DNA from: an uncultured Methylomirabilota bacterium
GTDB lineage: Bacteria > Methylomirabilota > Methylomirabilia > Methylomirabilales > 2-02-FULL-66-22
Length of the DNA: 64,000 bases
Direction: 5' to 3'
NCBI GenBank assembly: GCA_963705305.1
Contig: OY970067.1
Span: 5,581,312 to 5,645,311 of the forward strand
This document shows positions 4,552 through 33,081 of this stretch, in pieces; the first letter of the stretch is position 1, and every line of letters begins with the position of its first letter. Both the position numbers and the translations under genes were made by a program. The notes under the pieces were generated by a model. The model saw only the letters and a program-made list of their open reading frames with translations, was not told the origin of the DNA and ran no database searches.

Positions 4552-4564
4552 ACACCAAAGAAAT

Positions 4565-4612
4565 GGCGATGGAGTTCGCGGGTCCCCGTCTGCGCGGGGT
4601 GATAACTCCTAC
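4565..4612 (+). ncRNA. Fluoride (crcB) riboswitch 1
   Basis: GGCGATGGAGTTCGC...CCCCG/CGGGG stem...TGATAACTCCTAC; GGAGT/ACTCC pseudoknot pairing. Confidence 0.85.
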
Positions 4613-4640
4613 TGGCAAAGCCAGTGGGGGTTTTTTATTT
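4605..4640 (+). terminator. Intrinsic terminator overlapping the 3' end of riboswitch 1 (expression platform)
   Basis: AACTCCTACTGGC-AAA-GCCAGTGGGGGTT hairpin followed by TTTTATTT. Confidence 0.85.
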
Positions 4641-5798: not shown

Positions 5799-5802
5799 GG
5801 AG

Positions 5803-6597
5803 ATGGACTTCGGAACCTTCGACGGCTTCTGGCATAGGCTCGCCCGGACGCGTCTGCACATGCCCGAGGTGTCGGACCTCGAGGCTGTCCTGGGACAGGC
5901 GATGGGCGCGTGGCGAAGCTGCGTGGTTTGCAACCTTCTCTGGGAGCGGGCCTTTGACCTGACCTCGCGCTGGCAGCAGCTCCTCGCTTCTGACGCCGCC
6001 GCCCAGGCGGACTTCCTGTGCGGGCAGACTTGGTGCAACCGGCATGCCTGGTTCTTCAGCCAGATGATGGCCCCGGTGTCCCAGGCGCGCTTGCAGCGCC
6101 GACTGCACGAGGAGGTGGCGGCCCGGATTCGGGAGCACCTCCAGTCCATCCCGGAGCGTCCGATGGGCGGGGACGCCCGCACGATTCTTGAATCGCTCAT
6201 CGGCAGGCGTACCTGTCCCCTGTGCGACGACGAGTCCGCCTTGCTGACGCTGGTCCTGGCCGCGATAGTGCGCGGCCTGACCGCGGGATCGCTCCGGCCG
6301 GCCTTCGCCGCATCCGCCGGCTGCTGTCTCCCCCATCTGGCCGCCCTGCTGTCCCGCGTCGCCCACAGCGACACCGCCCGTTTCCTGTTGGAGGCGACCC
6401 AGGATCGCCTGGCACGGCTGACGGCGGAGTTGGACTACTACCAGGCGGAGAGCGAAAGCCGGCGGCGGCGGTACGAATCGGCCGCCGACGCCCCGGCCCG
6501 GGCCCTAGCCGCCTGGGCGGGCCTGCGGGACATGGTGCGGGATTGGGAGGGGACACCGACCGAGTCCCGCCCGCAGCCGGAAGGAGTTACGCCGTGA
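5803..6597 (+). CDS. DUF6062-like protein with duplicated CxxC...CxxH modules
   Basis: GAGGAG RBS; CVVC...CNRH and CPLC...CLPH. Confidence 0.75.
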   Translation: MDFGTFDGFWHRLARTRLHMPEVSDLEAVLGQAMGAWRSCVVCNLLWERAFDLTSRWQQLLASDAAAQADFLCGQTWCNRHAWFFSQMMAPVSQARLQRRLHEEVAARIREHLQSIPERPMGGDARTILESLIGRRTCPLCDDESALLTLVLAAIVRGLTAGSLRPAFAASAGCCLPHLAALLSRVAHSDTARFLLEATQDRLARLTAELDYYQAESESRRRRYESAADAPARALAAWAGLRDMVRDWEGTPTESRPQPEGVTP

Positions 6598-6679: not shown

Positions 6680-7936
6680 ATGAACGATCTCAACGGGAAG
6701 GCCGCTGTCGTCTCATCGGTTCCGGCCGATGACCGGTGGTTGAATCGCAATGTCGCGGGGATGGGGATCACCAGCCTGCTGAGCGATTGGGGACACGAGA
6801 TGGCCACGGCAATCCTCCCCGGGTTTCTGGCCGCCATCGGCGCTCCGGCCGCGGCCCTGGGCGTCATCGAAGGGGTGGCCGACGCCGTGTCCAGCTTCGT
6901 GAAACTCGGCGCCGGATGGTACACGGATCGGATCGGCCACCGGAAGGTCATCTGCGTAGGCGGTTATTTCCTGACGGGGGTCTCGCAGGCCATCTTTGCG
7001 TTTGCATACAGCTGGCCGCTGGTGCTCGCCGGCCGGACCCTCGGCTGGCTCGGTCGGGGCGTCCGCAGCCCTCTGCGGGACGCCATCCTGGCGGAGTCCG
7101 CGTCCGAGGAGGCGCGTGGGAAGGCCTTCGGCTTTCACCGGGCGGGCGACACGCTGGGCGCTGTTATTGGACCTCTCTGCGCCGTGGGGCTTCTGGCCCT
7201 GCTCCAGGGGCACGCCACCGGCGATCCCTCGTCACCCTTTCGTCTGGTATTCCTCCTGACCATCATCCCGGGTGTCGGATCGGCCCTGGCCTTCGGCACG
7301 GCGGTCCGCGAGCGGCGGCGCGCCCCGAACCGCGGGGTCCGGCTCTGGGCTACGATCCGTAGCCTGCCCCGGGCCTATCGGCGCTGGCTGGCGGGGGTGG
7401 GGATCTTCGGCATCGGGGACTTCGCGCACACCCTGATGATCCTGGCGGCCACGGAACTCCTCACCCCGGCGTACGGCGTGGTGGCGGCGGCCCAGATGGC
7501 TGCCCTGTTCTATGTGGTGCGGAATGTCCTGTACGCCGCCGCCTCTTACCCGATCGGCGCCTTGAGCGACCGCCTGGGTCGCCTCGGGATCCTGGTGCTC
7601 GGGTATGTCGTCGGCTCCCTGACGGCCGCCGGCCTCGTGGCCGCCTTCGCCTTCTCCTGGCGCCACCCCGTCTACCTTCTCGGGCTCTTCTGCCTGGGCG
7701 GAATCTACATCGCGGCCGAGGATGCCCTGGAGGGCGCCATGACCGCCGACTTCGTCCCTGCCGCGGAATGGCGGGGGATCGCGTACGGGGTGCTGGGGAC
7801 GGTCAACGGCGTCGGGGACCTGGCGGCCAGCGTGATCGTCGGCGTCCTCTGGACGGCGGTCTCGCCGGTCCTCGCATTCGCCTATGCGGCGGCGGCAATG
7901 GGCGCGGGCGCCCTGGTTGTCGCCCGCCCGTGCTGA
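6680..7936 (+). CDS. MFS transporter
   Basis: About 12 TM segments; GWYTDRIGHRK, GRGVRSPLRDA, RGKAFGFHRAGD, GALSDRLGR. Confidence 0.9.
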   Translation: MNDLNGKAAVVSSVPADDRWLNRNVAGMGITSLLSDWGHEMATAILPGFLAAIGAPAAALGVIEGVADAVSSFVKLGAGWYTDRIGHRKVICVGGYFLTGVSQAIFAFAYSWPLVLAGRTLGWLGRGVRSPLRDAILAESASEEARGKAFGFHRAGDTLGAVIGPLCAVGLLALLQGHATGDPSSPFRLVFLLTIIPGVGSALAFGTAVRERRRAPNRGVRLWATIRSLPRAYRRWLAGVGIFGIGDFAHTLMILAATELLTPAYGVVAAAQMAALFYVVRNVLYAAASYPIGALSDRLGRLGILVLGYVVGSLTAAGLVAAFAFSWRHPVYLLGLFCLGGIYIAAEDALEGAMTADFVPAAEWRGIAYGVLGTVNGVGDLAASVIVGVLWTAVSPVLAFAYAAAAMGAGALVVARPC

Positions 7937-16732: not shown

Positions 16733-16761
16733 TTGACGGGCTGGCGACATAGTGCTAGATT
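16733..16761 (+). promoter_or_regulatory. Promoter for fluoride riboswitch 2
   Basis: TTGACG-N17-TAGATT with extended -10 TG; aptamer starts at 16768. Confidence 0.75.
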
Positions 16762-16767
16762 TATTTT

Positions 16768-16814
16768 GGCGACGGAGTCTGCCTAGGCGCTGATCCGGCG
16801 ATGATGACTCCTAC
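16768..16814 (+). ncRNA. Fluoride (crcB) riboswitch 2
   Basis: GGCGACGGAGTCTGCC...CGCTG/CGGCG...TGATGACTCCTAC; downstream competing hairpin ACTCCTACCGGAG/CTTCGGGAGGGGT. Confidence 0.82.
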
Positions 16815-17176
16815 CGGAGTGTAGCCAGCTTCGGGAGGGGTTCTCGGATGTTCACGACGCGACTAGCGGCGATCGACCACCCCCCAGAACCTCTGTCTTA
16901 TGTCTTATAGCCCCCCTATCACGATCCCGGGTCTAGAACTATCTTCCGACAAGTTCGGGAGAAGGAGGACCACTCCCTTCTGGCGAGGCCGCCCCAGCCG
17001 CGCTTTCCCTCGTTTGGCACCGTGAGACGGGCGCTCTTTGGACTTATGAAGGGCGGCACAGTTATCGTTGATTGCCTGGCCGAGCGTTGGCTTAAGGGGA
17101 GGGGGGGCCAGCGCTGGGGAAGCCGAGGGGGAGGCTGGATTGAGTCCGGAGATGATCGTGCTCCGCACCTTCAAAT

Positions 17177-17593
17177 GCTGAAGATCGACGCGGCCATCTT
17201 TTCGCCCGGCTGGAGGAACATCCGGGCGTCCAACTGGAGGTCCTGCGGTCGGCGTTGGTCGAGGCCTGCGCCGGATGGCGGGGCGCGCTGTTTCTTGGGC
17301 GAGGGGTGGAGGAACTCCTTCGCGGCCGGGTTGCCTCTGGGCGCGTGCACGTCATCGCCCCTTTCGAACTGCGGGTCGGACGGATCGAGCGGCAGGTGAA
17401 TGTCTCGCGGTCGCGAGCCGAGGAGCGCGTGCGCCGGAGTGACGAGGAGAACGCCTGGTTCTACCGGACATTCTTCGGAATCGATTGGGGTGACCTACGG
17501 CGGCCGGACATCGTGATCGACACGGGGACGGTCTCCGTCGCGGAGGGGACGAGCCTGCTCATGGATGGGCCCATGCTTCGCCAGCCCCGATGA
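17177..17593 (+). pseudogene. 5'-truncated cytidylate-kinase-like protein
   Basis: LFLGRG...HVIAPFELRVGRI...SDEENAWFYRTFFGIDW...DIVIDTG; in-frame TGA upstream and no N-terminal P-loop (compare intact paralog 52985-53629). Confidence 0.65.
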
Positions 17594-17691: not shown

Positions 17692-19188
17692 ATGACAGCA
17701 CAATCCCTAGAGGGCCGTCTGCGCGATCTCCTGGCCGCGAAGACACCCGTTTTGCTGGTCGTTTCAGACGATGAGGAGCGAGTTGACGAGGCGATCCGGA
17801 CAAGCCTCGCCACCTTGCCTGCGGGAATCGAGGCCTGGTCGTGGACGGTTACCGAGGGCCTGCGGACGAGTCAAACCATCATTCAGGGCACCGCGGGTGT
17901 CGCAGACGCGCTGAATGCTGCCACCCGGTTGGATCGGTCCGCCGTCTTCTTTTTCAAGGACCTTCATCTCCTGCTGGACAAGCACGACCCCTGGCTGATC
18001 CGCCGGCTAAAGGATCTGGCCGCCTCCTTCCGTGTCCAAGGAAAGGCCCTTGTTTTCCGGTCGCCGAGCATCGTCCTCCCCGACGATCTGGTCCCCACGG
18101 TGGTGGTGGTGGAGGATGCACCCCCGACGCGGACCGAGCTGATGGCTTTGCTCCGGGAATGGAAGGGATCGGCGAAGCAAGATCAGGGGCCCCCGGCCCC
18201 GGATCTTGCCGAGGGCTTCCTTCGAGCTGCCGCGGGCCTCCGACTGTACGAGGTTCGCCGCATCCTGAATCGAGCCCAGCCACAATCACCCGGCGCGGAG
18301 GATTGGCTTCTCGCCGGACTCGTGGAGGAAAAGGCCCGGTTCGTCAATCGGAGCGGCCTCCTCGAATATGTCCCCTCCGATCTCACCCTCGAGCGGGTGG
18401 GGGGGCTGCAGAACTTCAAGGGGTGGTTGCAGCAGGAGAACACGTCTTCACTGAGGCGGCTCAGCGAGTGGGGCTGAGTCCCCCCCGGGGCGTTCTCCTA
18501 ATGGGCATCACGGGCTATGGGAAGAGTGTCGCCATCAAGGCCGCGGCCAGCTTTTGGAAGCTGCCGCTTCTCAGGTTGGACATGACGCGGCTCTATGGGG
18601 GAGAATTTGGCGCGCCGGAAGAGGCTGTCCGCCAGGCCATGCAGCGCGCCGAATCCCTGGCACCGTGCGTCCTGGATGGACGAGATGGAAACAGGGATCA
18701 GCCTGGCCGGCCACAAGGCCGATGGGGGGGCCGCTTCTCGCATCCTGGGATACTTCCTCACCTGGATGCAGGAACGGCGCGCCCCGGTCTTCGTCGGCGC
18801 GACCGCCAACGCCATTGACCTTCTTCCAGCCGAGGTCTTCCGCAAGGGCCGCTTTGATGAGATCTTCTACGTCAGCCTGCCAGGTAAGGCAGAACGGCAA
18901 GAGATCTTCCAGACCCACCTGGCAAGGCGCGGAATCAATCCGGGGGGGATGGATCTGGACCTTGTCGTCTACGGGTCCAAAGGCTACAGTGGGTCTGAGA
19001 TCGAGCAGATCGTGGCCGCCGCCCTGATCGCTGCCCAGTCTGAGGGCCGCGCCCCCACCGATTCGGACTTGGCGACCTCGCTTTCGCGGACCGTCCCGAT
19101 GTCCGTCACCATGGCCGAGCAGATCAAGCGCATAGAGGCATGGGCCTTCCATCGCGCCGTGCGGGCCTCGCCCGAAGACCGGAGCTGA
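17692..19188 (+). pseudogene. Ycf46-like AAA ATPase with two frameshifts
   Basis: Three-frame mosaic: ...VGGLQNFKGWL / [15 protein letters not shown]...APCV / WMDEME...[11 protein letters not shown]; shifts near 18439 and 18672. Confidence 0.85.
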
Positions 19189-19249: not shown

Positions 19250-19278
19250 TTGACGAGGTGGGGACAGGATGCTAAATT
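19250..19278 (+). promoter_or_regulatory. Promoter for fluoride riboswitch 3
   Basis: TTGACG-N17-TAAATT with extended -10 TG. Confidence 0.75.
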
Positions 19279-19284
19279 TCATTT

Positions 19285-19332
19285 GGCAATGGAGTCTGCC
19301 TGAGTGCGTTCCCCGACGCTGATGACTCCTAC
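19285..19332 (+). ncRNA. Fluoride (crcB) riboswitch 3
   Basis: GGCAATGGAGTCTGCC...GCGT/ACGC...TGATGACTCCTAC; GACTCCT can alternatively pair with AGGAGTC at 19357-19363. Confidence 0.88.
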
Positions 19333-19764
19333 CGAACTCGACCGGGTTACGGCAGGAGGAGTCGGATAGTTGCAGCGCAATCGGGGAAAGCGCGTTTCTG
19401 TGTTTACCTCTTCCCTCCCTGCTTTCCCGTTGGAAGCGTAATCCGTCTGCCCGGCCGCATGGGTTGTCCTGCGCATGATCCGAAGGAGGATCGGCGAACC
19501 CCTGTGCGCTGGCAGTCTTGCCGGAGCTGATCACGGACCGGGCGATGATTGCGAAATGGCTCGGGGCTGTCGAAGCGCTTCTGTCCGACTGCAATGAGGT
19601 GCTCGCGCCCACCGGGGGGAGGCACATCCTTTTTCGTAGCCAGCCGAGGCGCGGCCTTTCAGATTCCACCCGAGCCATGATTCCTCTGCCAATGATGCCG
19701 GCAAACTGGCGGCCGCCGGATGGCGCCGCTCGCTCACTCGGGGCTGTATAGAAAGGAGACGCAG

Positions 19765-21668: not shown

Positions 21669-22619
21669 ATGACAAACCGGATCCTTTTCAACCTCTTGCA
21701 ACTCCTCGTCGTCGGGGGTTTTGCGCCGCTGGTCGCCGGCGTCCTCAGTCGCGGGAAGGAGATCGTCCAGTCCAAGCGCGGTCCCAGCATCTTCCAGCCG
21801 TACCGGGACCTGTGGAAGCTGTTTCACAAGGACGAGGTGGTCTCCGAGCATAGCTCGTGGATCTTTCGCTTCACGCCGTATCTGGTCTTCGTGACGCCGC
21901 TCTTCGTCACGCTGCTGATCCCCGTGCTGACCAGCTATCCGCTCTTCTTCGCCTTCATGGGGGATATGCTGGGCGGCGGGTTCGTCCTGGCCTTGGGCGG
22001 CTTCTTTGCCGCGTTGGCCGCCGTGGACACGGCCAATTCGTACGGCCCCGTCGGCGCCAGCCGCACGCGCATGGTCGGCTTCCTGGCCGAGCCGGTGTTC
22101 ATGATCGTCTTCTTCACCGTCTCGTTCGTCGCGAATTCCACCATTCCCTACATCGTCCAGCAGCGGTGGGTCACGCCCCTGGCCAATTTCTTCGCCCCGT
22201 CACACGTGCTGCTCCTGCTGGCGTTTCTCATGCTGATCCTCGCCGAAGGCGGGCGCATCCCTGTGGACAACCCGACCGGCCATTTCGAGCTGGCCATGAT
22301 CGACGAATCGAAAGGGCTCGAGTACTCGGGGCGCGGCGCGGCGCTGATGAAGTGGGGAGGCCAGATGAAGTTCTTCGTGCTGCTCTGCATCTTTCTCAAT
22401 GTGCTCGTGACCCCCTGGGGCCTGGCCGCCGGACAGGCATGGGGCGAGGTGCTGCTGGCGATTCCCCTGGTGCTGTTCAAGCTCCTCCTCCTGGCGGGGG
22501 TGCTGATCGTCATCGAATCCTCGCTGGCCAAGCTCCGGCTGTTTCGCATCGCCGAGTTCCTGGGCGCGGCCTTCATCACGTCGGTGCTGGCGATGACCGC
22601 CAGCATCTTTGCCTTCTGA
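21669..22619 (+). CDS. hyfC: HyfC/HycD-like (NuoH family) membrane subunit
   Basis: GPSIFQPYRDLWKLFHK; GRIPVDNP..HFELAMI; EYSG. Confidence 0.9.
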   Translation: MTNRILFNLLQLLVVGGFAPLVAGVLSRGKEIVQSKRGPSIFQPYRDLWKLFHKDEVVSEHSSWIFRFTPYLVFVTPLFVTLLIPVLTSYPLFFAFMGDMLGGGFVLALGGFFAALAAVDTANSYGPVGASRTRMVGFLAEPVFMIVFFTVSFVANSTIPYIVQQRWVTPLANFFAPSHVLLLLAFLMLILAEGGRIPVDNPTGHFELAMIDESKGLEYSGRGAALMKWGGQMKFFVLLCIFLNVLVTPWGLAAGQAWGEVLLAIPLVLFKLLLLAGVLIVIESSLAKLRLFRIAEFLGAAFITSVLAMTASIFAF

Positions 22620-22631
22620 CGAGGAGACCCC

Positions 22632-23324
22632 ATGTTCAGCGATCCCGCATCTGCGGCATGGCTCAGCCACCTCAACGCCCTTGCCGGCGGGCTGTTCCTA
22701 CTGGCCACCTTCGGCATGGTGGCCACGCGTCAGGTGCAGGCCTGCCTGCGCATTTTCATCGCCCAATCGCTCTGTCTCGCCGCGTCCGCGTTCCTCCTGA
22801 GCCTTGGACTCCAGTCGTGGCATGTCTTCGCCGTAGGGATGATCGACGTCATCAGCAAGCCGCTGGCAATCCCCTGGCTGCTCCGACGGACGGTGCGGGG
22901 AGAGGTGTACAGCCGGCGCGAGATCGACCAGCTGGTGAACATCCCCACGTCGCTGCTGATCGCCCTGGCGCTGGCCATCGCCGCGTATTTCTTGGCGCTG
23001 CCCCTCCTCACCGTGGCGGACGGGGCATACGTGCGCGTCAACCTGCCCATCGCCATCGCGGGCCTGCTGGTGGGCGCATACACCGCCTCCGTGCGGCGTG
23101 AGGCCGTCCCGCTGCTGCTGGGCTTGCTGGCGATGGAGAACTCGGCCTTCTTTGCGGGGATCGCCATCGCCCCGGGGCTGCCCCTGATCGCCGAGCTGGC
23201 CTTCACCTTCGACGTGCTGATCCTGTCGTTCATCGCGGGCGTATTGACCCGCACCATTCACCAGCACATCGGCACCACGGAGGTCGGCACGCTCGCCGCC
23301 CTCAGAGAGGGACCCAAACCATGA
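22632..23324 (+). CDS. hyfE: HyfE-like membrane subunit
   Basis: About 7 TM segments; KPLAIPWLL; LGLLAMENS. Confidence 0.85.
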   Translation: MFSDPASAAWLSHLNALAGGLFLLATFGMVATRQVQACLRIFIAQSLCLAASAFLLSLGLQSWHVFAVGMIDVISKPLAIPWLLRRTVRGEVYSRREIDQLVNIPTSLLIALALAIAAYFLALPLLTVADGAYVRVNLPIAIAGLLVGAYTASVRREAVPLLLGLLAMENSAFFAGIAIAPGLPLIAELAFTFDVLILSFIAGVLTRTIHQHIGTTEVGTLAALREGPKP

Positions 23325-24754
23325 GTCTGCCCATCATCTTGGGCTTGCCGCTCTTGGCGGCGGCGGTGTCCTGGCTGCCGTTCGGCTGGCGCGTGGTGGC
23401 ATCCGCCACACTCGCATCCGCCGTCGCGGTCCTGGTCCTGGCCGTCCGCGCGGCGCTGACCGTCGCCGGCGGCACGCCGCTCGTCGCCGTTCCGGACTGG
23501 ATCGCGCTGGATGGCTTCGGCGCCCTCCTGCTGGTCCTGGTTGCCGTGGTCGGGGCGACCGCGGCACTGTTTTCGTGGGGATACATGGGCCGGCACGATC
23601 ACACGGCTGGTCGGTTACGCTCGTACTACCTCCATTTCAACCTGTTCCTGTTCGCCCTCGTCGCCGCGCCGGTCGTGGCCGAGCCGAACCTGGCGTGGAT
23701 CGCCGTCGAGCTGACCGCGCTCTTCTCGGTGCTGCTGGTGGCCTTCGAGAACACGCACGAGGCGCTGGAGGCGGGCTGGAAGTACATCGCATTGATGTTC
23801 ATGGGGGCCGCGATCGCGCTGCTGGGCTTCCTCATTCTCTTCTGGGCCTTTCAGCAGGGTGGGGGCGGGCCGTATTCCTGGGCGACGCTGCGCGCCGCCG
23901 CCCCCCGGTTGCCGCCCACGCTGGTCGAGGCCGCCTTCCTGTTGATTCTCGTCGGCTTCGGCACCGAGGTGGGGTTCGTGCCGCTTCATACCTGGCTGCC
24001 CGACGCCCACAGCCAGGCCCCGTCCCCCGTCTGCGCCCTGCTCTCGGGGGTCAAGACCACGGTCTCCCTCTACGTGATCCTGCGCCTGGTGCCTTTGCTG
24101 CCGGAACGCCAGGCGCAGCCATGGCTCCTGGCCGTGGGGCTCATCTCCGTGGGTGCCGCGGCCTTTCTCCTGCTCCAGGTGGACGATTACAAGCGCCTGT
24201 TCGCCTTTTCCACCGTGGAGCACATGGGAATCATCGCCGCCGCCGCCGGGCTAGGCACGGCCGGCGGCTACTACGGGGCCATGTTCCAAATGCTCACCCA
24301 TTCCCTGGCCAAGTCCTTCTGCTTCCTCGCCTCCGGGGCGGCCTTGCTGGCGGTGCGGACTCGGCGGATCGGCGCCGTCCGCGGATTGGCCCGGACGTCG
24401 CCGCCGGCCGCTGTGGCCATGCTGTTTGGGGGGCTCGTGGTGGCCGGGGCGCCGCCGTTCGCCGTCTTCCTGAGCGAGCTCACGATCTTCAGGGCCGGCC
24501 TGGCGGCCGGGCGCTACGTCGTGACGGGGCTCCTGGCCCTCTTCATTGCCATCGCCTTCTTCGCCACGCTTTTGCACCTGAACCGCATGGTGTTCGGTCC
24601 TCCCGCGGCCAGTTCGACGGCGCCGCCGCGCCTACCCGGAAGCTGCTTCCTGGCGCTCATCCTGGCTGCGATGCCCCTGGCGCTGCTGGGCGTCTACCTC
24701 CCGGCGCCCATTCATCAACTCTTGCAGGCGGCCGCGGCCGCCCTGACGAGGTGA
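23321..24754 (+). CDS. hyfF: HyfF-like antiporter-family subunit
   Basis: WIAVELT, LEAGWKY, PLHTWLPDAHSQAP, KRLFAFSTVEHMG. Confidence 0.9.
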   Translation: MSLPIILGLPLLAAAVSWLPFGWRVVASATLASAVAVLVLAVRAALTVAGGTPLVAVPDWIALDGFGALLLVLVAVVGATAALFSWGYMGRHDHTAGRLRSYYLHFNLFLFALVAAPVVAEPNLAWIAVELTALFSVLLVAFENTHEALEAGWKYIALMFMGAAIALLGFLILFWAFQQGGGGPYSWATLRAAAPRLPPTLVEAAFLLILVGFGTEVGFVPLHTWLPDAHSQAPSPVCALLSGVKTTVSLYVILRLVPLLPERQAQPWLLAVGLISVGAAAFLLLQVDDYKRLFAFSTVEHMGIIAAAAGLGTAGGYYGAMFQMLTHSLAKSFCFLASGAALLAVRTRRIGAVRGLARTSPPAAVAMLFGGLVVAGAPPFAVFLSELTIFRAGLAAGRYVVTGLLALFIAIAFFATLLHLNRMVFGPPAASSTAPPRLPGSCFLALILAAMPLALLGVYLPAPIHQLLQAAAAALTR

Positions 24755-24761
24755 GCCGCCG

Positions 24762-26339
24762 ATGAACCTGACCGAGGTACAGACGCACATCGCCCGGCGC
24801 TGGTCGGGGCTGGCCGAGAGTCGGCTGGAGGGCTGCCCGCCCCTTTTGGAGGTGACCTCCGCGCCCCGGGCTCTCCCCGACATCTGCGGATGGCTCTTCA
24901 GCGACTTGGGGTACAGCTTCGCCGGCTTGATCGTCGAGGAGGGGCCGTCCCAGTGGGAGCTGCGCTACCCGTTCTACGGCGAGGGGGAGGCCGCCTGGGT
25001 CCACGTGCTCGTCCGCCGGCCGCTGGACGAGGCCAGGCTTCCCAGCATCAGCGAACCCGTCCACGCAGCGGACTGGCATGAGCGCGAGGCGGAGGACCTG
25101 TTCGGTCTGGTCTTCGAAGGCCATCCCCGGCTGGGGGACTTCGTGCTGCACGATGACCGGTGGCAGGAGGGCGTGGAGCCCATGCGCCGCTCCTTTTCCG
25201 CGCACCGACCCCTGGCGGAGCGCCACCCCAACGTCAAAAGGCGGCCGCGCCGGATTGTGCGGGCCCCGGGCGCGTTTGCGATGCCGATTGGGCCGGTGTT
25301 CGCCGGCCAGGCCGAGGCTGTCCACTTCCTGCTGGAAACGGTGGGGGAGGATGTGATCCGCGCCATCCCTCGCCTCTTCTACAAGTATCGCGGCATCGAG
25401 AAGCTTGCCGAGGGGCGTTCGCTGGAGGAGACCCTGCTGCTGGCGGAGCGGTTCTGCGCCACCTCCGCCTTCGCCCACGCCCTGGGGTTCTGCCTGGCCG
25501 TCGAGGCGATCGCCGGCGCGGCGGCGCCGGCGCGCGCCCAAGCCCTGCGTGTCATGCTGGCAGAGCTGGAGCGCTTCCGCCATCATGTGGCGGCGATCCA
25601 GGCGATCTGCGAATCCACGGCGCTCGCCGTCGCCGCCAGCCAGGCGGCCATGCTCGAAGAGGATCTGCTGCGGCTCAGCGGGGCGCTCTCCGGCCATCGA
25701 TACCTGTTCGGTCTGCTGACGCCCGGCGGGCTCACGCGCGACTTCGAAGACGCCGCCTGCCGGACGGCGGTCGGTGGCGTCCGGGTGGTCCTGAGCCGCC
25801 TGGTGGAGATTCAGCAGATGCTCCAGTTCTCCAGCAGCTTTCTCGACCGGATCGAGCAGGTCGGCATCACCCCGGAGAAGGAGGTGCGCCTGCACGGCCT
25901 CGTGGGTCCGGTGGCGCGCGCCGCCGGCGTGGCCCGCGATCTCCGACGGGCCCAGCCCTACTGCGGCTACGATGCGCTCCCCTTCGAGGTGCCCTGCGAG
26001 TCCGAGGGAGATGGCTACGCGCGACTTCGGGTGCTGTTCGCCGAGGCCGCCCAGTCGGTGCGGCTGATGGAGCAGGCGGCGGCCTTGCCGGGAGGGCCGG
26101 TGCTGGCCCCTGTACAGATGCGGCCAGGGGCCGCCATGGGCTGGACGGAGGCGCCTCGGGGCGCAGCGCTTCACTGGGTACGTATCGGGGAGGACGGCCA
26201 GGTGGCTCGCTACCGGATCATGCCGCCCTCGTTCGCGAACTGGCACGGATTTCACGTGGCCGCCGAGAACTTCGCCTTCCAGGACTTCCCCATCATCCTG
26301 GCCACCTTCGATCTGTCGGTGGCGGAAAACGACCGGTGA
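24762..26339 (+). CDS. HyfG/HycE-like large subunit without NiFe ligands (Ehr type)
   Basis: NuoC+NuoD architecture (WHEREAEDLFG..F.GHP; EAPRG); ERFCATSAFAH and C-terminal FDLSVAENDR lack both CxxC pairs. Confidence 0.88.
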   Translation: MNLTEVQTHIARRWSGLAESRLEGCPPLLEVTSAPRALPDICGWLFSDLGYSFAGLIVEEGPSQWELRYPFYGEGEAAWVHVLVRRPLDEARLPSISEPVHAADWHEREAEDLFGLVFEGHPRLGDFVLHDDRWQEGVEPMRRSFSAHRPLAERHPNVKRRPRRIVRAPGAFAMPIGPVFAGQAEAVHFLLETVGEDVIRAIPRLFYKYRGIEKLAEGRSLEETLLLAERFCATSAFAHALGFCLAVEAIAGAAAPARAQALRVMLAELERFRHHVAAIQAICESTALAVAASQAAMLEEDLLRLSGALSGHRYLFGLLTPGGLTRDFEDAACRTAVGGVRVVLSRLVEIQQMLQFSSSFLDRIEQVGITPEKEVRLHGLVGPVARAAGVARDLRRAQPYCGYDALPFEVPCESEGDGYARLRVLFAEAAQSVRLMEQAAALPGGPVLAPVQMRPGAAMGWTEAPRGAALHWVRIGEDGQVARYRIMPPSFANWHGFHVAAENFAFQDFPIILATFDLSVAENDR

Positions 26340-26358
26340 TTGTGAGAGAGGACGGGAC

Positions 26359-27129
26359 ATGACTCAATGGGTTCGCAAGGGGATCTCCAGCGGGGTGAAG
26401 ACCACGCGCTATCCTGATGCCGCAGATACGACGCCGGGCCTGTCCCCGGGACTGCCGCTGGGCGGCGGATATCCGGCGGCCGAGATTTCCTCGCTCGTCG
26501 ATCGCTGTCCGACCAAGGCGATCAGCGCGAGGGACGCTGGCGGCGTCGCCGTGGATTACCGTCGCTGCATTCACTGCTTCCGGTGCGCCCGCGGACCGGG
26601 CGCGCCGTTGGCCTGGACTCCGGGCTACGAGTGGGGTGCGCGGGGAGGCGAGGTCTCGCCCGATCCTCTGGGCGCCGCCTTCGAGCGGTCGCTGTACATT
26701 CTGGTCGTGGACGCCGGCGACTGCGGGGCCTGCCTGAGCGAGGTCAGACAGCTCAACAATCCCTACTACAACATGCACCGCCTCGGTTTCTTCATCACCC
26801 CGACCCCCCGGCTGGCGGATGTGCTCCTGGTGGTGGGTCCCGTGACCGACCACATGCGGCGCCCCCTGCAGAAGACGTATGAGGCGATGCCGACGCCGAA
26901 GCGGGTGATGGCCGTGGGGGCCTGCGCCCTCTCGGGCGGCGTCTTCGGACCGAGCTTCGTCTCGGGCGCGGGGGTGGCGGAAGTGCTGTCCGTCGACGTG
27001 GCGGTGCCAGGCTCGCCGCCCCCCCCACTGGCCATCCTGCATGGTCTGCTGGTCCTGGCCGGCCGGAGACCCCCCGCCTCGCTTCTGTCCCCGGCGCAGA
27101 CAGCGGGTACGGACGGAGGAGGCCGATGA
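26359..27129 (+). CDS. HyfI/HycG-like small subunit fused to an N-terminal ferredoxin-like domain
   Basis: CPTKAI...CIHCFRC, then DCGAC, ADVLLVVGPVT, VGACALSGG, PGSPPPP. Confidence 0.88.
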   Translation: MTQWVRKGISSGVKTTRYPDAADTTPGLSPGLPLGGGYPAAEISSLVDRCPTKAISARDAGGVAVDYRRCIHCFRCARGPGAPLAWTPGYEWGARGGEVSPDPLGAAFERSLYILVVDAGDCGACLSEVRQLNNPYYNMHRLGFFITPTPRLADVLLVVGPVTDHMRRPLQKTYEAMPTPKRVMAVGACALSGGVFGPSFVSGAGVAEVLSVDVAVPGSPPPPLAILHGLLVLAGRRPPASLLSPAQTAGTDGGGR

Positions 27130-29288
27130 ACACCCCTGCCGCCGCCTCGATCGGCCTGTTCCTCGCGCTGTGTGCCGCCGGCATTGGGCTGACGGCCGCG
27201 GTCCCGTCGCAGCGCGTCCCGCGGCTCCTGGCCTGGATCGGCGCGATCGCCTCGCTGCCGGTTCTCTGGGCCGGGGGTGCGGTGCTGGCAACCGGGCAGG
27301 TGCTCAGCATGCGCCTGTGGACGATCCCCGCGTGGGGACCGCTGATGTTACAGATGGACCGGCTGGGAGCCGTTTTCGTCATGGTAGCCGGGATGGTCTT
27401 TCTGCCCGTCTCGATCTTCTGTGCGGGCTATCTGCCTCGCTACCTGGGGCGATACAGCCTTCGGATGTTCGGCGGGATGTATCTGGCCCTGTATGCGTCC
27501 ATCGTGTTGATTTTCATCGCCGGCGACGTCCTCCTGTTCCTGTTCGCTTGGGAGGCGATGTCGATCCTTACGTATCTCCTCGTGAATTATGAGCACGAGG
27601 AGGAAGGACACTCCCAAGCCGGTTATGCCATGCTGGCCATCGGCGAGGCGGGAACGGTTGCCATAGCGCTGGGGCTCCTGCTGCTGGCGGTCGCGGCGGG
27701 CTCGTCGGAATTCGCCGCGATGAAGGCGGGCGCGGCTGTACTCGGTCCTGGTGCTCGATGGGGGGTGTTCCTGCTCACGTTCTTCGGATTCGGCGTCAAG
27801 GCCGGCCTGGTGCCCACGAACTCCTGGCTGCCACGCGCTCATCCCGTGGCGCCGGGAAATGTCTCGGCGCTCCTCTCAGGTGTGGTCTTGAACCTGGGGA
27901 TCTATGGAATTGTGCGCGTCAACCTCGACCTCTTGCCCACCAGCGCAATAGGAATGGGGCTCATTGCGCTGACCATCGGAACGATCTCTGCCGTTTTGGG
28001 TATTCTCTACGCCACCACAGAAAACGATCTCAAAGTGATGCTGGCGCACAGCTCGATCGAGAACATCGGCATCGTGACTGCCGGGCTGGGGGCAGGCTTT
28101 GTATTTACCGCCACCGGGCATTCGAGCTTGGCCGTCATCGCCCTTGTCGCTGCGCTCTACCACATGGTGAACCATTCGATCTACAAGTCGCTCCTCTTCC
28201 TCGGGACGGTAACTGTCGATTCGCAGACCGGAACGCGCGACCTGGACTTGCTCGGAGGGCTCATTCGTCGTATGCCATGGACGGCTCTGCTTTTCCTGGT
28301 CGGGGCACTCTCGATTGCGGCCATGCCGCCGTTCAACGGGTTTGTGAGCGAATGGCTGATGTTGCAGACGGTGCTGCGCAGCGTGGAGCTGTCATCCGTC
28401 GGCGCGAAGCTGGTGTTTGCCGTGTGCGGCGCGGGCCTGGCATTGACCGCCGCACTGGCAGTGACCTGTTTTGTGAAGGCGTTTGCCATGGGGTTCCTGG
28501 GCATGTCCCGCTCTCCTCAGGCTCGGCGGGCCACGGAAGCACGTGTGTCCGCTCTGGCGCCGATGGCGCTGCTGGCAGCGCTCTGCCTTGGATTGGGCGT
28601 GTTGCCGACCTACGTCATCCCGGTCCTCAGCGAGGCACTGGCGCCTCTGGCGCAAGCCAGCGCAGCGGACGCGCTGGTGCCTCCGTTCTTCGCCGGCAGT
28701 CCGGGACATGCGAGCCTCCCGCGAGGGTTTGCGGTGGAATTCCATGACCTGGGCGCCCAGGTGGGGCAGCACCTCCTGCCGGGCCGCGGGCTGGTGGTGC
28801 TTCATCGGGGCGGACCCGAAAATCCCGTGGTATTCGCCATGTCCACCTCGTACTCCCTGGTGGTCCTGGCACTGCTGCTGGGGCTGGTGTATGGCCTGGT
28901 GGGAGTCTGGGCGGCGCGACGCCGCCGGCTGGTCCGACGGGCGTGCTGGGACGGCGGCGTCGACCGCTTGCTGCCGGAAATGACGTACACCGCCACGGGC
29001 TTCTCGAATCCGGTGCGAGTCATTTTCGACGCCGTATTCCGCCCCACGATGGCCAGGGAGGGACCAGAGACCGTAGCCAGCCACTTCCGGATGGCCATCC
29101 AGAAGGGGCGCCAGGAGACCTATATCGTCGACCGGCTCTTCCTTCATCCGGTCCGGCGCGGGGCCATGGCGGTCGCCCGCCAGTTGGCGAGGATGCACAA
29201 CGGCCGAGTCAACGCGTATATCGGGTACGTCCTCGCCGCCCTGCTGCTGGTCTTGCTGGCGGCCTGGCTCGGAGGGGCCGCGGGCTGA
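27126..29288 (+). CDS. hyfB: HyfB-like antiporter-family subunit
   Basis: FAWEAMS, GVKAGLVP..WLPRAHP, AHSSIENIG, PPFNGFVSEW, MTYTATGFSNP. Confidence 0.9.
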   Translation: MNTPAAASIGLFLALCAAGIGLTAAVPSQRVPRLLAWIGAIASLPVLWAGGAVLATGQVLSMRLWTIPAWGPLMLQMDRLGAVFVMVAGMVFLPVSIFCAGYLPRYLGRYSLRMFGGMYLALYASIVLIFIAGDVLLFLFAWEAMSILTYLLVNYEHEEEGHSQAGYAMLAIGEAGTVAIALGLLLLAVAAGSSEFAAMKAGAAVLGPGARWGVFLLTFFGFGVKAGLVPTNSWLPRAHPVAPGNVSALLSGVVLNLGIYGIVRVNLDLLPTSAIGMGLIALTIGTISAVLGILYATTENDLKVMLAHSSIENIGIVTAGLGAGFVFTATGHSSLAVIALVAALYHMVNHSIYKSLLFLGTVTVDSQTGTRDLDLLGGLIRRMPWTALLFLVGALSIAAMPPFNGFVSEWLMLQTVLRSVELSSVGAKLVFAVCGAGLALTAALAVTCFVKAFAMGFLGMSRSPQARRATEARVSALAPMALLAALCLGLGVLPTYVIPVLSEALAPLAQASAADALVPPFFAGSPGHASLPRGFAVEFHDLGAQVGQHLLPGRGLVVLHRGGPENPVVFAMSTSYSLVVLALLLGLVYGLVGVWAARRRRLVRRACWDGGVDRLLPEMTYTATGFSNPVRVIFDAVFRPTMAREGPETVASHFRMAIQKGRQETYIVDRLFLHPVRRGAMAVARQLARMHNGRVNAYIGYVLAALLLVLLAAWLGGAAG

Positions 29289-29364: not shown

Positions 29365-29393
29365 TTGACATGCCCCAGACCGGCGCCTAAACT
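29365..29393 (+). promoter_or_regulatory. Promoter for fluoride riboswitch 4
   Basis: TTGACA-N17-TAAACT. Confidence 0.75.
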
Positions 29394-29403
29394 CTTGATG
29401 GGT

Positions 29404-29449
29404 GGGGATGGAGTCCCCCGTAACCGCCTCACCGGCTGATGACTCCTAC
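29404..29449 (+). ncRNA. Fluoride (crcB) riboswitch 4
   Basis: GGGGATGGAGTCCCCCGTAACCGCC...GGCTGATGACTCCTAC; closest of the four to consensus; compensatory P1 GGGG/CCCC. Confidence 0.92.
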
Positions 29450-29525
29450 CGAGGCCTTTGTCGGCCGGAGTTTCGACCTGTGAGGAAGAGCAGCTCCTGC
29501 AGGCGACGGCCTGGAGGAGTTTTTT

Positions 29526-31220
29526 ATGGACGCGATCAGGTCCGCACCGCCTGCATCCCTGGGAGGCCCGCTCCACCCCTCACCGCCATCGGCGCTGGAG
29601 GAGGTCGGGGCGATCTGCCGCCGGTTTCGCCTCGACGCCCTGCGGCCACAGCTCGACGCCTGCACCGCGCTCCTGCAGGATGGGGAGGTGGTCGACGTCG
29701 CCGTGGTGGGACGCTTCAAGGCCGGGAAGAGCTCCTTCCTGAACAGCGTCGTAGGCGGGGACTTGTTGCCGGTGGCCGCCCTGCCTCTCACGGCCGTGAT
29801 CACCCGCCTGCGCTATGGTGCGAGCGACCGCTCGGTGGTCAAACATTTGGATGGCACCGAGCGGGAGATCCCCGTGGACGACCTCCGCGAGTACGTCACG
29901 GAACAGCGGAACCCCGCCAACACCAAGGCCGTCGCCATGGTCGAGGTGGAGCTATCCTCCCTACGGCCCTACCAGGGGATCCGCTTCGTGGACACGCCGG
30001 GCCTGGGCAGCGTCTTCACCCACAACACCCGCGCCTCGATGGATTGGCTGCCGCGGATCGGGGCGGCGCTCCTTGCGATCAGCGCCGACCAGCCCCTGTC
30101 GGAGCATGATATGACCTTGCTGGCCGAGCTGGCCAAGCACACGCCGGAGATCTCGATCCTTCTCACCAAGGCGGATCTGGTGAGCTCCGGCGAGCTCGCG
30201 GACATCATCCGCTTCATCAGGGATCAGGTCGGCTCGACAATCCCCGGTGCGGTGCGCGTACTGCCTTTCTCCGTACGGCCCGGGTTCGAGCCCCAGCGTG
30301 CCGGGGTCCGGGAGTACCTGCTTGGGCGAGTTGCCGAGCACCACGAAGAGACCTCCAGGAGCATCCTCCGGTACAAACTCCAGCGGCTGACGGCTGACTG
30401 CCGGCAGTACCTGGAGGTGGCGCTGGCAGCGGCCTCGGCGGCGGCGGAGGCGCGGACGCGGCTGCAGGAAGCGCTCCGGCGGGAACGGACCCAGCTGGAG
30501 GCCGTGGGGAATGAGATCCGGATCGTGGCGCAGGACCTCAAGGGTCGGCTGATGGCAGACGCGCTGGAGCGATACGTCGCCCACACCCGCGAGCTCGTGG
30601 CGAGTTTGACGGCCGGGCTGCGGGCCGCCATGCCCGGGTGGAGAGGCGACCTGCGTAAGACGGCCGAACAGTTCGCCCAGTGGACCTATGAGGCCATCGA
30701 AGAACAGCTTGGCCCGCATTCCCACCAACACGGAGAGGAGCTGATCGCGCGGCACCTGACGTCCGCCCAGGCCAGCCTTTCCCGTGTGGTGCAGGCCTTC
30801 CAGGACCGATTGGCACAGGCGGTCGCGGAGGCGCTCCATACGCCATTCGCGGGGGCCCGCTTCGATGCCGCGGTCCGGTCCCCCGAGCGGCCGGACGTCC
30901 GGGTGAGCCGGGTCTTCGACATTCCGTTCGAGATCCTCTGGTTCCTGATCCCCATGACCGTCTTCCGCCCCCTGGTGAACCGGCACTTCGTCCGCAGGCT
31001 CCCCTGGGAGGTTGAGAAGAATCTCCACCGATTGGCGATGCAGTGGGCGCAAGCCATCGGAGCCTCCATCGACGATCTGGCCCGCCAGGCGCGGGAGTTC
31101 ATGTGGGAGGAGCTGGCCACCATCGACCGGTTGGTGTCCGAGAGCCAGGACCAGCGACCGGCCCTGGAGGGCGCCCTGGCGACGCTGGAGGCCGTCGGGC
31201 GAGCGGGTGAGGAGCAATAG
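29526..31220 (+). CDS. Bacterial dynamin-like GTPase
   Basis: G1 GRFKAGKS, G3 DTPG, G4 TKAD; helical C-terminal half with a hydrophobic paddle (FEILWFLIPM). Confidence 0.88.
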   Translation: MDAIRSAPPASLGGPLHPSPPSALEEVGAICRRFRLDALRPQLDACTALLQDGEVVDVAVVGRFKAGKSSFLNSVVGGDLLPVAALPLTAVITRLRYGASDRSVVKHLDGTEREIPVDDLREYVTEQRNPANTKAVAMVEVELSSLRPYQGIRFVDTPGLGSVFTHNTRASMDWLPRIGAALLAISADQPLSEHDMTLLAELAKHTPEISILLTKADLVSSGELADIIRFIRDQVGSTIPGAVRVLPFSVRPGFEPQRAGVREYLLGRVAEHHEETSRSILRYKLQRLTADCRQYLEVALAAASAAAEARTRLQEALRRERTQLEAVGNEIRIVAQDLKGRLMADALERYVAHTRELVASLTAGLRAAMPGWRGDLRKTAEQFAQWTYEAIEEQLGPHSHQHGEELIARHLTSAQASLSRVVQAFQDRLAQAVAEALHTPFAGARFDAAVRSPERPDVRVSRVFDIPFEILWFLIPMTVFRPLVNRHFVRRLPWEVEKNLHRLAMQWAQAIGASIDDLARQAREFMWEELATIDRLVSESQDQRPALEGALATLEAVGRAGEEQ

Positions 31221-31467
31221 GCGTGAGGCGCGGCCGGCCTGTACGTCCGCGCTTCGGTGCCCGCCGAGGAATGCGCGCAGACCGCATGGATGGCCACGCC
31301 GGAGAAGTCCCGCGTCCGAAATGAACTACCCCGCGGCAAGTCGCGGGGGATGAACCCTCATGGATTCACCCGGTCCCGCAAGTCCCAGAATTCTTCACCA
31401 TAGGCCCCGTCCGGCGATTCTCCCCCGTGCCCCTCTGATCGGATTCACGATGTGATATGATCCCCGC

Positions 31468-33081
31468 ATGACCAACCAGATGCTCTTCACGCTCTTCGGC
31501 GGGACGGCCCTCCTGCTCTACGGGATGCAGCTCGTCCGCGAGGGCCTCCAGACCGTGGCCGGCGGGCGGATGCGCCAGATCCTCGGATCCATGACCGGGA
31601 ACCGCGTGAAGGGGGTGCTGGCAGGCGCCTTCGTCACGGCCGTCGTGCAATCCTCCGGTGCGACGACCCTCATGCTGGTGGGATTCGCCAATTCCGGCCT
31701 GATCAGTCTTGCCCAGAGCATCGGCGTGATCCTGGGCGCGGACATCGGCACCACCTTCACCGTCCAACTGATCTCGTTCCAGATCTTCGAGTATGCCCTC
31801 CTCCTGACGGGCGTGGGCTTCCTCCTGATCTTCGTCTGCAAGCGCAGGATCCTGAAGTCCACCGGTCAGGCGATCCTGGGGTTCAGCCTGATCTTCCTGT
31901 CTATCGAGTACATGGCCAAGGCCATGGCGCCGCTCCGCGACAGCGAGGTGGTCCGCATCCTCCTCGCTTCGCTTGGGCAGCAGCCGATCCTTGGCGTGTG
32001 CGTGGGGGCGGCCCTCGCCGCGCTGGTCCTCAGCTCCGCCGCCACCATCGGCCTCGTCCTCACCCTGGCCCTACAGGGGATCCTGAGTCTCCAGTCGGCC
32101 ATCCCGATCGTCCTCGGAGCCAACATCGGCACCTGCGCCACGGCGCTGGCCGGCTCCATCGGAACGACGACCGTGGCGCGGCGGGTGGCCCTCGCCCACA
32201 TCCTGTTCAAGGTGGCGGGGACCCTGGTGTTCCTGCCGTTCCTCGGCCCGTTTGCCCGTGCGGTGCAATGGACCGCGGCCGATACGGCGCGGCAGATCGC
32301 CAACGCCCACACGCTCTTCAACCTCGTGATCACTGTCGCCTTCCTCCCCTTCACCCCGCTCTTCGCCACCCTGCTCGCGCATCTGGTGCCCGAGGCGCAG
32401 GCGAGGGACGGCGTTTTCGGCGCAAGATACCTCGAGGAGCGGATGCTGGACACGCCGGCGCTGGCCCTCGGGCAGGCAACGCGCGAGGCGCTCCGTGTGG
32501 GGGATATCGTCTCGGAGATGCTCGCCCAGAGCCTACCGGCCCTGTCCCGGAACGATCCCGATCTCGTGGAATTCATCAAGGAGAAAGACAATCAGGTGGA
32601 TGCCCTCTACCGGGATATCAAGCACTACCTCACCCGGCTCTCCGGAGAGCGGCTCACCGACACCCAGGCGCGGCGCAAGATGACCATCCTCGCCTTCGCC
32701 GACAACATGGAGAGCATCGGCGACATCGTGGACCGTAACCTCATGGAGCTGGCCAAGAAGCGACTGCGGAGGGGCGTGCGCTTCTCCGACCCCGGGATCC
32801 AGGAGATCGGGGCGCTGCACAAGCAGGTGCTCGAGAGCGCGGAGCTGGCGATCGCCGCCTTCGGAAGCAGCGATATGATCCTGGCTCGGCGCGTCCTGGA
32901 TCAGAAGCAGGAAATCGGGCGGAACGGACGGATGCTCCGTCAGGCGCACATCCAGCGGCTGCACGACGGGCTGCGGGAGTCGATGGAGACCAGCGAGATC
33001 CACCTGGACATCCTCACCAACCTCCAGCGGATCAGCTCGCACCTCGGCGCGATCGCCGTCCCAATCCTGGAAAGCGCCTAG
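31468..33081 (+). CDS. Na/Pi cotransporter family protein with C-terminal PhoU domains
   Basis: VQSSGATT, LGADIGTT, LGANIGT, QIANAHTLFN; ESIGD; HIQRL. Confidence 0.93.
   Translation: MTNQMLFTLFGGTALLLYGMQLVREGLQTVAGGRMRQILGSMTGNRVKGVLAGAFVTAVVQSSGATTLMLVGFANSGLISLAQSIGVILGADIGTTFTVQLISFQIFEYALLLTGVGFLLIFVCKRRILKSTGQAILGFSLIFLSIEYMAKAMAPLRDSEVVRILLASLGQQPILGVCVGAALAALVLSSAATIGLVLTLALQGILSLQSAIPIVLGANIGTCATALAGSIGTTTVARRVALAHILFKVAGTLVFLPFLGPFARAVQWTAADTARQIANAHTLFNLVITVAFLPFTPLFATLLAHLVPEAQARDGVFGARYLEERMLDTPALALGQATREALRVGDIVSEMLAQSLPALSRNDPDLVEFIKEKDNQVDALYRDIKHYLTRLSGERLTDTQARRKMTILAFADNMESIGDIVDRNLMELAKKRLRRGVRFSDPGIQEIGALHKQVLESAELAIAAFGSSDMILARRVLDQKQEIGRNGRMLRQAHIQRLHDGLRESMETSEIHLDILTNLQRISSHLGAIAVPILESA

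Follow-up and report, generated by a model that had tools for sequence, protein, structure and literature searches.

A 64,000-nucleotide (nt) stretch of the genome of an uncultured Methylomirabilota bacterium (contig OY970067.1, positions 5,581,312 to 5,645,311; hereafter the window) carries four fluoride riboswitches, the fourth of which lies in the 5' leader of a dynamin-like GTPase gene, between its promoter and the coding sequence. Folding models predict that this riboswitch turns the gene on through two successive hairpins, the second of which is a sequence copy of the first and ends in a U-run directly ahead of the start codon. We put the probability of this reading, a duplicated-terminator relay acting mainly on transcription, at roughly 60%. 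The parts are all of known kinds; their combination, and the relay, are new.

The riboswitch is genuine, as the original prediction for this leader had it: RF01734 matched over the full model (positions 1-64) with 57.4 bits, the gathering score being 34. The other matches in the window begin at 4556 (26.1 bits), 16759 (24.0), and 19276 (38.6), the first two scoring under the gathering threshold, and a whole-genome search returned no match outside these four. From its sequence, the aptamer at 29395-29455 is predicted, and likely, to bind fluoride and to give a fluoride-dependent output. A sigma-70-type promoter precedes it (Table 1); two promoter-like sites occur in the region versus 0.1 in shuffled sequence, and TTGAC stands at the equivalent position in six of the seven homolog leaders compared. 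Because the promoter ends at 29393, the leader likely starts near 29399-29400 and is thus set apart from the upstream Hyf-like operon, which ends at 29288. The letters and coordinates of the original prediction were correct on re-reading: 29442-29462 and 29505-29520 are complementary, the bulges lying where they were given, and the second segment holds the Shine-Dalgarno sequence, followed by a T-run and the ATG at 29526. A U-rich tail was found in all seven homolog leaders compared, and in each the start codon stands in frame right behind the U-run, with its spacing from AGGAG kept. Among the 1116 long GGAG-ATG-start open reading frames (ORFs) of the genome, the dynamin-like gene alone has at least five T in the six bases before its ATG, which supports termination.

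The arms of the leader alternate in sequence (b like d, c like e), and b can therefore pair with c or e, and d likewise with c or e. Hairpin 1 (b with c) destroys the pseudoknot of the aptamer; its predicted stability is -13.3 kcal/mol alone and -28.1 kcal/mol with an extension (29427-29432/29480-29485) that also opens P3. In the window, two of its stem pairs are broken, arm c has two substitutions with respect to the relatives, and it is followed only by UUCG. The U6 tract comes after hairpin 2 (d with e), which is by alignment a sequence copy of hairpin 1 and has what is expected of a terminator, i.e., a G+C-rich stem, then U6, then AUG. Hairpin 2 with U6 is thus predicted to act as an intrinsic terminator, one in which the Shine-Dalgarno sequence is covered as well, and RNA polymerase would presumably stop at U6 in vivo. 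A simple terminator scan did not flag hairpin 2, probably because of its G-G mismatch.

The two hairpins are also the best fold of the whole leader. The original prediction had instead rested on a long-range helix hiding the ribosome-binding site (RBS), and forcing that helix raised the ensemble energy from -63.6 to -59.4 kcal/mol (4.2 kcal/mol higher); its outer ACUCCU/AGGAGU (b-e) pairing had a probability of 0.00 in the full leader and at every tested length containing it, and the helix was the best fold only when the leader was trimmed to 29440-29530. The complementarity is nevertheless real, the helix is a second OFF fold (the best one at the terminator point in two of six close relatives), and its lower half (AGGCC/GGCCU; 29452-29462/29502-29512), which can form with the aptamer still closed, is part of the predicted ON fold. 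What was missed is the stronger local hairpin at 29492-29521. Since this hairpin hides the RBS, even in the bound state, unless 29467-29472/29492-29497 pairs, the long-range helix alone cannot explain switching. The canonical single-terminator arrangement, in which the terminator stem holds the 3' strand of the pseudoknot and runs into the U-run, was not found in the preferred fold; only the competing rod, which lies 4.2 kcal/mol above it, has this arrangement.

The folds predict switching all the same. The bound state was mimicked by forbidding pairing of the aptamer through U29447 (masked). The predicted cost of freeing the RBS at the terminator point fell from 9.8 kcal/mol unmasked to 0.7 kcal/mol masked, in keeping with the ON logic originally proposed; shuffles of the segment between b and d gave a mean of 7.6 kcal/mol, and only one of 200 was as good as the real value. 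With arm c blocked, the masked cost rose from 0.7 to 6.7 kcal/mol and the relay effect was abolished. In stepwise folding, the rod had a probability of 0.94-1.00 in the masked state for transcript ends 29513-29519; over the same ends in the unmasked state, hairpin 2, which buries the Shine-Dalgarno sequence in the predicted OFF fold, climbed from 0.41 to 1.00. Once the U-run had been made, hairpin 2 was back at 0.86-0.89 in the masked state, and in the masked leader with 24 further bases, the RBS was free with a probability of only 0.02. The rod thus holds for a limited span of transcription and the RBS is re-hidden later, behavior that suits a kinetic antiterminator and would make a poor equilibrium translation switch; control of the dynamin-like gene therefore looks mainly transcriptional in these models. 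The original order of priorities, translational first and possibly terminating, is probably reversed, as the terminator is blocked just when it is due to form.

The predicted sequence of events is as follows. Without fluoride, the aptamer 3' strand b would pair with arm c to give hairpin 1, leaving hairpin 2 to form; hairpin 2 and U6 would halt RNA polymerase just ahead of the start codon, and any read-through RNA would keep its Shine-Dalgarno sequence hidden in hairpin 2. With fluoride, locking of the pseudoknot would release arm c, and c-d pairing would extend into the rod; hairpin 2 would then be unable to nucleate, and the exposed AGGAG would be open for ribosome loading.

The product is indeed a dynamin-like GTPase, matching Dynamin_N (PF00350) with 77.8 bits (cut-off 27) and carrying G1, G3, and G4, the core residues of which are invariant or nearly so among 56 sequences. 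It is the sole full Dynamin_N match of the genome, the other two covering model positions 1-34 only. An AlphaFold2 (AF2) model (pLDDT 86.1, pTM 0.80) has a GTPase domain plus neck and trunk helical bundles, and the first Foldseek matches of this model were IniA and BDLP. VIA-align superposed it on Fzo1 (Z 22.5, root-mean-square deviation 3.1, 299 aligned), IniA (Z 18.9, deviation 10.9, 484 aligned), and also mitofusin. No NCBIfam dynamin equivalog was reached, the best score being 35.9 bits against 1600. The hydrophobic segment at residues 464-484 is conserved at W472 (54/56), F473 (55/56), P476 (55/56), and M477 (56/56), and it is a candidate membrane-binding element by analogy with BDLP and with IniA, for which passages of PMC6715688 describe a lipid-interacting loop between trunk helices. 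GTP hydrolysis and membrane remodeling by the protein are predicted and plausible, as is a role in membrane stress; it may belong to a recurring fluoride regulon and counter fluoride damage by binding the inner membrane and reshaping or repairing it when fluoride is present.

The link between this riboswitch and dynamin is not confined to the window, as a survey suggested by the original prediction bears out. A profile scan of metagenomes found at least 610 relatives among at least 622 stretches, and the best 80 of these at least 610 by protein score were analyzed; riboswitches were counted at the Rfam gathering level in flanks of up to 4 kb. Only Rfam matches were used because a regular expression written for the aptamer was misled in L034 (loci are given as L numbers), where its hit was false, and overlooked several genuine aptamers (L030, L060, L065, and L104). 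RF01734 scored above gathering in 52 of the 80 homolog loci, and 63 of its 66 matches there are on the strand of the dynamin gene. These 66 fall in 0.53 Mb of loci, as against two above cut-off in the 5.65 Mb genome. Where more than 350 nt of upstream sequence is present, 29 of 72 loci have RF01734 on the same strand within 350 nt of the match start, and 49 of 72 have it upstream at any distance; by cluster, the near arrangement is found in 25/64 at 90% identity and in 17/25 at 70%. At L071, a small ORF seems to intervene between riboswitch and dynamin gene. Of nine genome loci, seven carry a match immediately upstream, with six of these scores under the gathering threshold; the six loci from the same genus combine another type of aptamer with a plain terminator that lies well ahead of the start. 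In a more distant dynamin clade, a regular expression, used alone, placed the motif upstream in five of 13 loci.

Neighbors recurring in the 80 loci, annotated from 27 cluster representatives, are metallophosphoesterase (17), enolase (13), AAA-type ATPase (12), Na+/H+ exchanger (10), MFS (9), FGE-sulfatase domain (9), a fusion of a dynamin-like protein (DLP) with DUF6062 (8), Usp (8), a second DLP (7), MutS-V (6), and HAD proteins. In the commonest of these (L087, 783-1898, and 16 more loci), the metallophosphoesterase is joined in one protein with a dUTPase-like domain, and an FGE-sulfatase-domain protein lies beside some. A variant aptamer (window 4556-4618; L009, L011-L015, and L021) has a long G+C-rich P3, lacks the AAC linker, and scores 21-32 bits; because it falls under the Rfam cut-off, surveys at gathering level undercount such switches.

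These neighbors bear on why the protein should be induced at all. It is quite conceivable, if not what we favor, that the gene is on because metal-fluorides poison phosphoryl-transfer enzymes and the cell responds by making more of the protein, or that the protein serves vesicle shedding or assembly of the neighboring membrane complex, instead of acting on damaged membrane. The neighbors are largely such enzymes (metallophosphoesterase, enolase, AAA-type ATPase, and MutS-V at the frequencies above, and HAD), overexpression offsetting inhibition is the reading given for enolase and phosphatases in passages of PMC11139923, and dynamin-like proteins mediate vesicle release in mycobacteria according to PMC10240201. 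Against poisoning, however, the genome has no second full dynamin, and so no housekeeping copy to back up; among 20 same-genus genomes, seven have a strong match and 13 no full-length match. Against complex assembly, the Hyf-like operon is not among the recurring neighbor clusters annotated from the 27 representatives.

For the duplicated platform itself, a model trained on six leaders and run on 93 sources gave eight matches above 100 bits (the window, L029, L030, L036, L040, L041, L056, and L106), the next best scoring 62.6; all had been used in training except L030 and L041, the latter a repeat of L040. All eight precede close homologs of the window's dynamin-like protein. In the six distinct relatives, the predicted cost of freeing the RBS was 4.9-14.1 kcal/mol unbound and 0.0-5.7 kcal/mol masked, and 0 to 3 of 200 shuffles matched in each. 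Hairpins 1 and 2 can be aligned to one another, and both also to the lone hairpin of L089, where one stem unites aptamer, terminator, RBS, and ATG, and in L036 a U-run is still present after hairpin 1. Tandem duplication of an ordinary single terminator thus likely produced the two hairpins, a direction of change suggested by these alignments. Over six sequences, 94% of cells are paired in the two hairpins and 93% in the rod, compared with 33-51% in slid controls, and two-sided changes number two for the two hairpins and zero for the rod. An apparently significant two-hairpin covariation with seven sequences (0/500 shuffles) was rejected as an artefact: L106 was misaligned by one column in both arms, creating false two-sided changes, and the signal disappeared without it.

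Among 151 genomes of the phylum, the platform was found in none beyond the genome of the window, nor did an exact-pattern search find it in viral contigs; single-sequence scans for more copies yielded one locus in genomes and none in metagenomes. No DLP match was found in plasmids at E 1e-30, and the protein occurs in 3 of 135 genomes of a second phylum. Two side observations concern related loci. L034 (3790-4000) has a close homolog behind enolase with no aptamer directly upstream, where the 3' arm of a hairpin 2 and its U-rich tail serve as RBS; this is likely a relic of the duplicated platform. At L036 2781-2834 and L056 1870-1922 (minus strand), two loci of the clade with the duplicated platform, the fluoride riboswitch has an nhaA-I RNA motif (RF03057) upstream of it in divergent orientation.

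Several results weigh against the relay. The bound state is represented by a mask only, the pseudoknot and fluoride lying beyond the folding model. Masked c-d pairing reached only 0.40 at end 29520, 0.06 at 29505, and 0.11-0.14 after the U-run. The top pseudoknot pair is C-G, and with a C-G top pair, constructs from B. cereus and T. petrophila switched less well, as described in passages of a preprint (bioRxiv 10.1101/2023.12.05.570056), if, as we infer, the published position corresponds to that of the window. At the terminator point, masking leaves hairpin 2 dominant in L030 (0.99) and L106 (1.0), and two pairs of the L030 pseudoknot are mismatched; the b-e rod is the preferred unbound structure of L040 and L056 at that point. 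The relay test was passed by only two of five other two-hairpin leaders (L092 and L099; L032, L058, and L102 failed). Cross-pairing is expected after a duplication even without selection, and covariation over the six sequences is not significant, 78 of 500 shuffles reaching the two-hairpin score and 356 of 500 that of the rod. As for the protein, a Dynamin_N search found no partner DLP in this genome, and most bacterial DLP genes are paired according to PMC6104087; a second DLP is present at some homolog loci.

The rod behavior of L040 and L056 gives some weight to a scheme close to the original prediction, although unlikely, in which a single long rod is present in both states and hairpin 2 is incidental: c-d and the lower helix would form during transcription, and b-e would zip onto the Shine-Dalgarno sequence without fluoride as a long terminator or sequestering stem, the base of the rod staying open with fluoride. 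L092 and L099 likewise favor such a rod when unbound at the terminator point, the two hairpin loops of L040 have inserts that pair mutually in it, and it retains the canonical direct aptamer-terminator overlap of PMC12667848, as described in passages of that paper. In the window, however, it is disfavored by the energy and the b-e probability given above, and hairpin 1 is local and made first. With downstream bases present, L040 and L056 themselves prefer two hairpins. The outer b-e helix is 81% paired with no two-sided change, and its end pair is broken in five of seven sequences, where arm e mostly matches d.

Mainly translational control, with hairpin 2 or the rod hiding the RBS and the U-run a mere spacer, appears improbable. 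The position of AGGAG within a stem, its spacing to the start in seven of seven homologs, and the interrupted U-tails of L036, L040, and L056 would suit it, and translational fluoride riboswitches with sequestering hairpins exist (passages of PMC12667848); but the RBS stays hidden in the masked full leader (free at 0.02 here and at 0.03 or less in five of six relatives), the U-run is unique among the 1116 starts, and same-genus relatives have their terminator separate from the RBS. There is equally little to recommend a degenerate switch, near-always OFF or leaky ON owing to its strong pseudoknot, with weak expression or read-through from the riboswitch-3 operon: the arm c stem substitutions, marginal ON state, and C-G top pair would fit, as would upstream genes on the same strand and the lack of a plus-strand terminator found between them and the promoter, but promoter, aptamer, and ORF are intact, the arm c changes are offset by alternative helices opening the aptamer, and read-through must still cross hairpin 2. 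Of the readings considered for the leader, the duplicated-terminator relay is thus the one we retain.

Table 1. Coordinates, in window numbering, of the elements of the fourth riboswitch, its leader, and the dynamin-like gene.
Feature	Position	Strand	Remarks
Sigma-70-type promoter TTGACA-17-TAAACT	29365..29393	+	10/12 consensus matches
Fluoride riboswitch aptamer RF01734	29395..29455	+	covariance-model match, 57.4 bits
Aptamer P1	29404-29407/29416-29419	+	part of RF01734 aptamer
Aptamer pseudoknot	29410-29415/29441-29446	+	six Watson-Crick pairs, C-G on top, not wobble
Aptamer P3	29426-29428/29434-29436	+	part of RF01734 aptamer
Putative aptamer linchpin	A29439-U29447	+	numbering mapped from published passages
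Hairpin 1 (predicted)	29441..29472	+	aptamer 3' strand b (29441-29452) with arm c (29461-29472); pseudoknot destroyed
Long-range helix of original prediction	29442..29520	+	rod extended by 29442-29447/29515-29520 (b-e); alternative OFF fold
Predicted ON fold, antiterminator rod	29452..29512	+	29464-29472/29493-29500 (c-d), 29452-29462/29502-29512
Hairpin 2 (predicted)	29492..29521	+	arms d (29492-29504) and e (29509-29521) paired around a GACG loop; -21.7 kcal/mol
Shine-Dalgarno AGGAG	29515..29519	+	from sequence; 6 bases ahead of ATG
U6 tract	29520..29525	+	between hairpin 2 and ATG; first T is last arm base
Dynamin-like GTPase P0001, 564 amino acids	29526..31220	+	G1 at residues 62-69, G3 at 156-159, G4 at 214-217
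Hydrophobic segment, residues 464-484	30915..30977	+	loop between long trunk helices in AF2 model

The remaining fluoride-associated genes of the window form an island behind its riboswitches, comprising enolase, a Hyf-like complex, a MutS-V pair, and an MFS protein. No Fluc was found in the genome, which is a single contig and 98.9% complete; across 21 genomes of the genus, many of them incomplete, Fluc occurs in one and a riboswitch match (E 0.005 or better) in 14. The four CLCs of the genome (loci L025-L028) read G-x-EGP, and none of the three CLC-F signatures defined in passages of PMC11139923 is present in them. The MFS gene (6680-7936), which has a homolog in 9 of the 80 dynamin loci, is a candidate alternative exporter. 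With four fluoride riboswitches and no recognizable exporter, the island is worth searching for another resistance route.

Riboswitch 1 is of a type that directly leads a dynamin gene in same-genus relatives, and behind it in the window is a DUF6062-like ORF (5776-6597) that resembles the C-terminal part of the L063 DLP-DUF6062 fusion (32% over 189 amino acids). Riboswitches 2 (16759-16860) and 3 (19276-19370) have TTGAC promoters and single aptamer-overlapping hairpins with no U-run. The AAA ATPase behind riboswitch 2 is apparently split in three frames (17692-18477, 17841-18818, and 18595-19188); this and a cytidylate-kinase-like piece at 17255-17593 are pseudogenes or assembly errors. Riboswitch 3 lies about 380 nt upstream of enolase, and a Hyf/Ehr-like membrane complex (21669-29288; HyfC, E, F, large and small subunits, and a HyfB-like protein) separates enolase from the dynamin gene; an association of fluoride riboswitches with genes for formate hydrogen lyase has been published (passages of PMC2864571). 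On the 3' side of the dynamin gene are a perfect 7-bp inverted repeat (31329-31348) and a Na+/Pi cotransporter with a PhoU domain (31468-33081). Phosphate import has been tied to fluoride tolerance (passages of PMC11139923); the cotransporter is not among the recurring neighbors of the 80 dynamin loci. A mir-486 match at 1416 was ignored because it fell far under its cut-off.

Associations between riboswitches and genes have revealed protein functions before, fluoride exporters being an example, and to our knowledge few triggers of bacterial dynamins have been named. The dynamin link hints that bacteria respond to fluoride in part at the membrane, in a way not reported so far: it offers bacterial dynamins a stimulus that is defined and cheap, and it points to a layer of fluoride tolerance in the membrane, of relevance to work on organofluorine biodegradation. 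It is a more doubtful proposition that the family is a dedicated, widespread fluoride-defence membrane protein in bacteria lacking Fluc and CLC-F, with a double-inversion platform that arose by terminator duplication; if true, this would be a natural example of expression platforms gaining a relay step. The platform is short (about 130 nt), and with L089 as its natural single-hairpin counterpart, it would show one route to complex riboswitch platforms.

The link was not found in full-text searches of the literature, although the gene lists of Baker 2012 and Stockbridge 2012 may name the family. Dynamin is absent from the parts seen of Weinberg 2010 (PMC2864571, main text and supplements) and PMC11139923, and from passages and four supplements of PMC12667848, the downstream-gene spreadsheet of which may be outside these; passages of PMC7266159 and PMC10907184 contain nothing on a dynamin link or a duplicated platform. 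The published fluoride regulon, as far as passages of PMC11139923 and PMC2864571 go, includes exporters, Na+/H+ antiporter, enolase, formate hydrogen lyase, MutS, HAD, and pyrophosphatase. It shares enolase, a Hyf-like complex, and MutS with the island but differs in that no dynamin is named there, whereas the genome carrying the island is without Fluc or CLC-F.

The protein resembles IniA (6j72; passages of PMC6715688), Nostoc BDLP1 (2j68), and the Campylobacter DLP pair (5owv) in its N-terminal helices, GTPase, neck, and trunk, although identity in these structural alignments is only 13-19%. The lipid-interacting loop of IniA and the paddle of BDLP lie at the trunk-helix position where the window protein has its loop. 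IniA is likewise stress-induced, the window gene being under a fluoride riboswitch. Paired systems (DynA, DLP1/2, and IniA/C) have a second DLP gene or domain, whereas the window genome is without one.

Transcriptional fluoride riboswitches such as that of B. cereus crcB have, in passages of PMC2864571 and PMC12667848, the same aptamer, the same ON logic, and a hairpin that takes the 3' strand of the pseudoknot when unbound, and riboswitch 1 of the window and those of the same-genus relatives are of this simple single-terminator form. Riboswitch 4 departs from the crcB type in that its aptamer-overlapping hairpin is not the terminator; a copied hairpin with the U-run and RBS follows 20 nt on and has no overlap with the aptamer. 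The platforms in passages of PMC12667848 have direct overlap only, which in some variants reaches through P3, with no tandem or second terminator described in the main text, and literature searches found no description of a duplicated-terminator platform. A terminator without aptamer overlap is also a feature of the tug-of-war riboswitches described in passages of a preprint (bioRxiv 10.64898/2026.06.17.733018) that lists direct-overlap designs too, but their spacers are under 5 nt and complementarity is not needed, whereas here the terminator begins about 45 nt past the aptamer and arm c is required in the models. The central-antiterminator riboswitches in passages of the same preprint also relay the aptamer signal to the terminator through an intermediate helix. 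Theirs is a single intermediate and the logic is inverted; here, two exchanges (b-c to c-d) are predicted, the ON logic would be kept, and the parts repeat one another in sequence.

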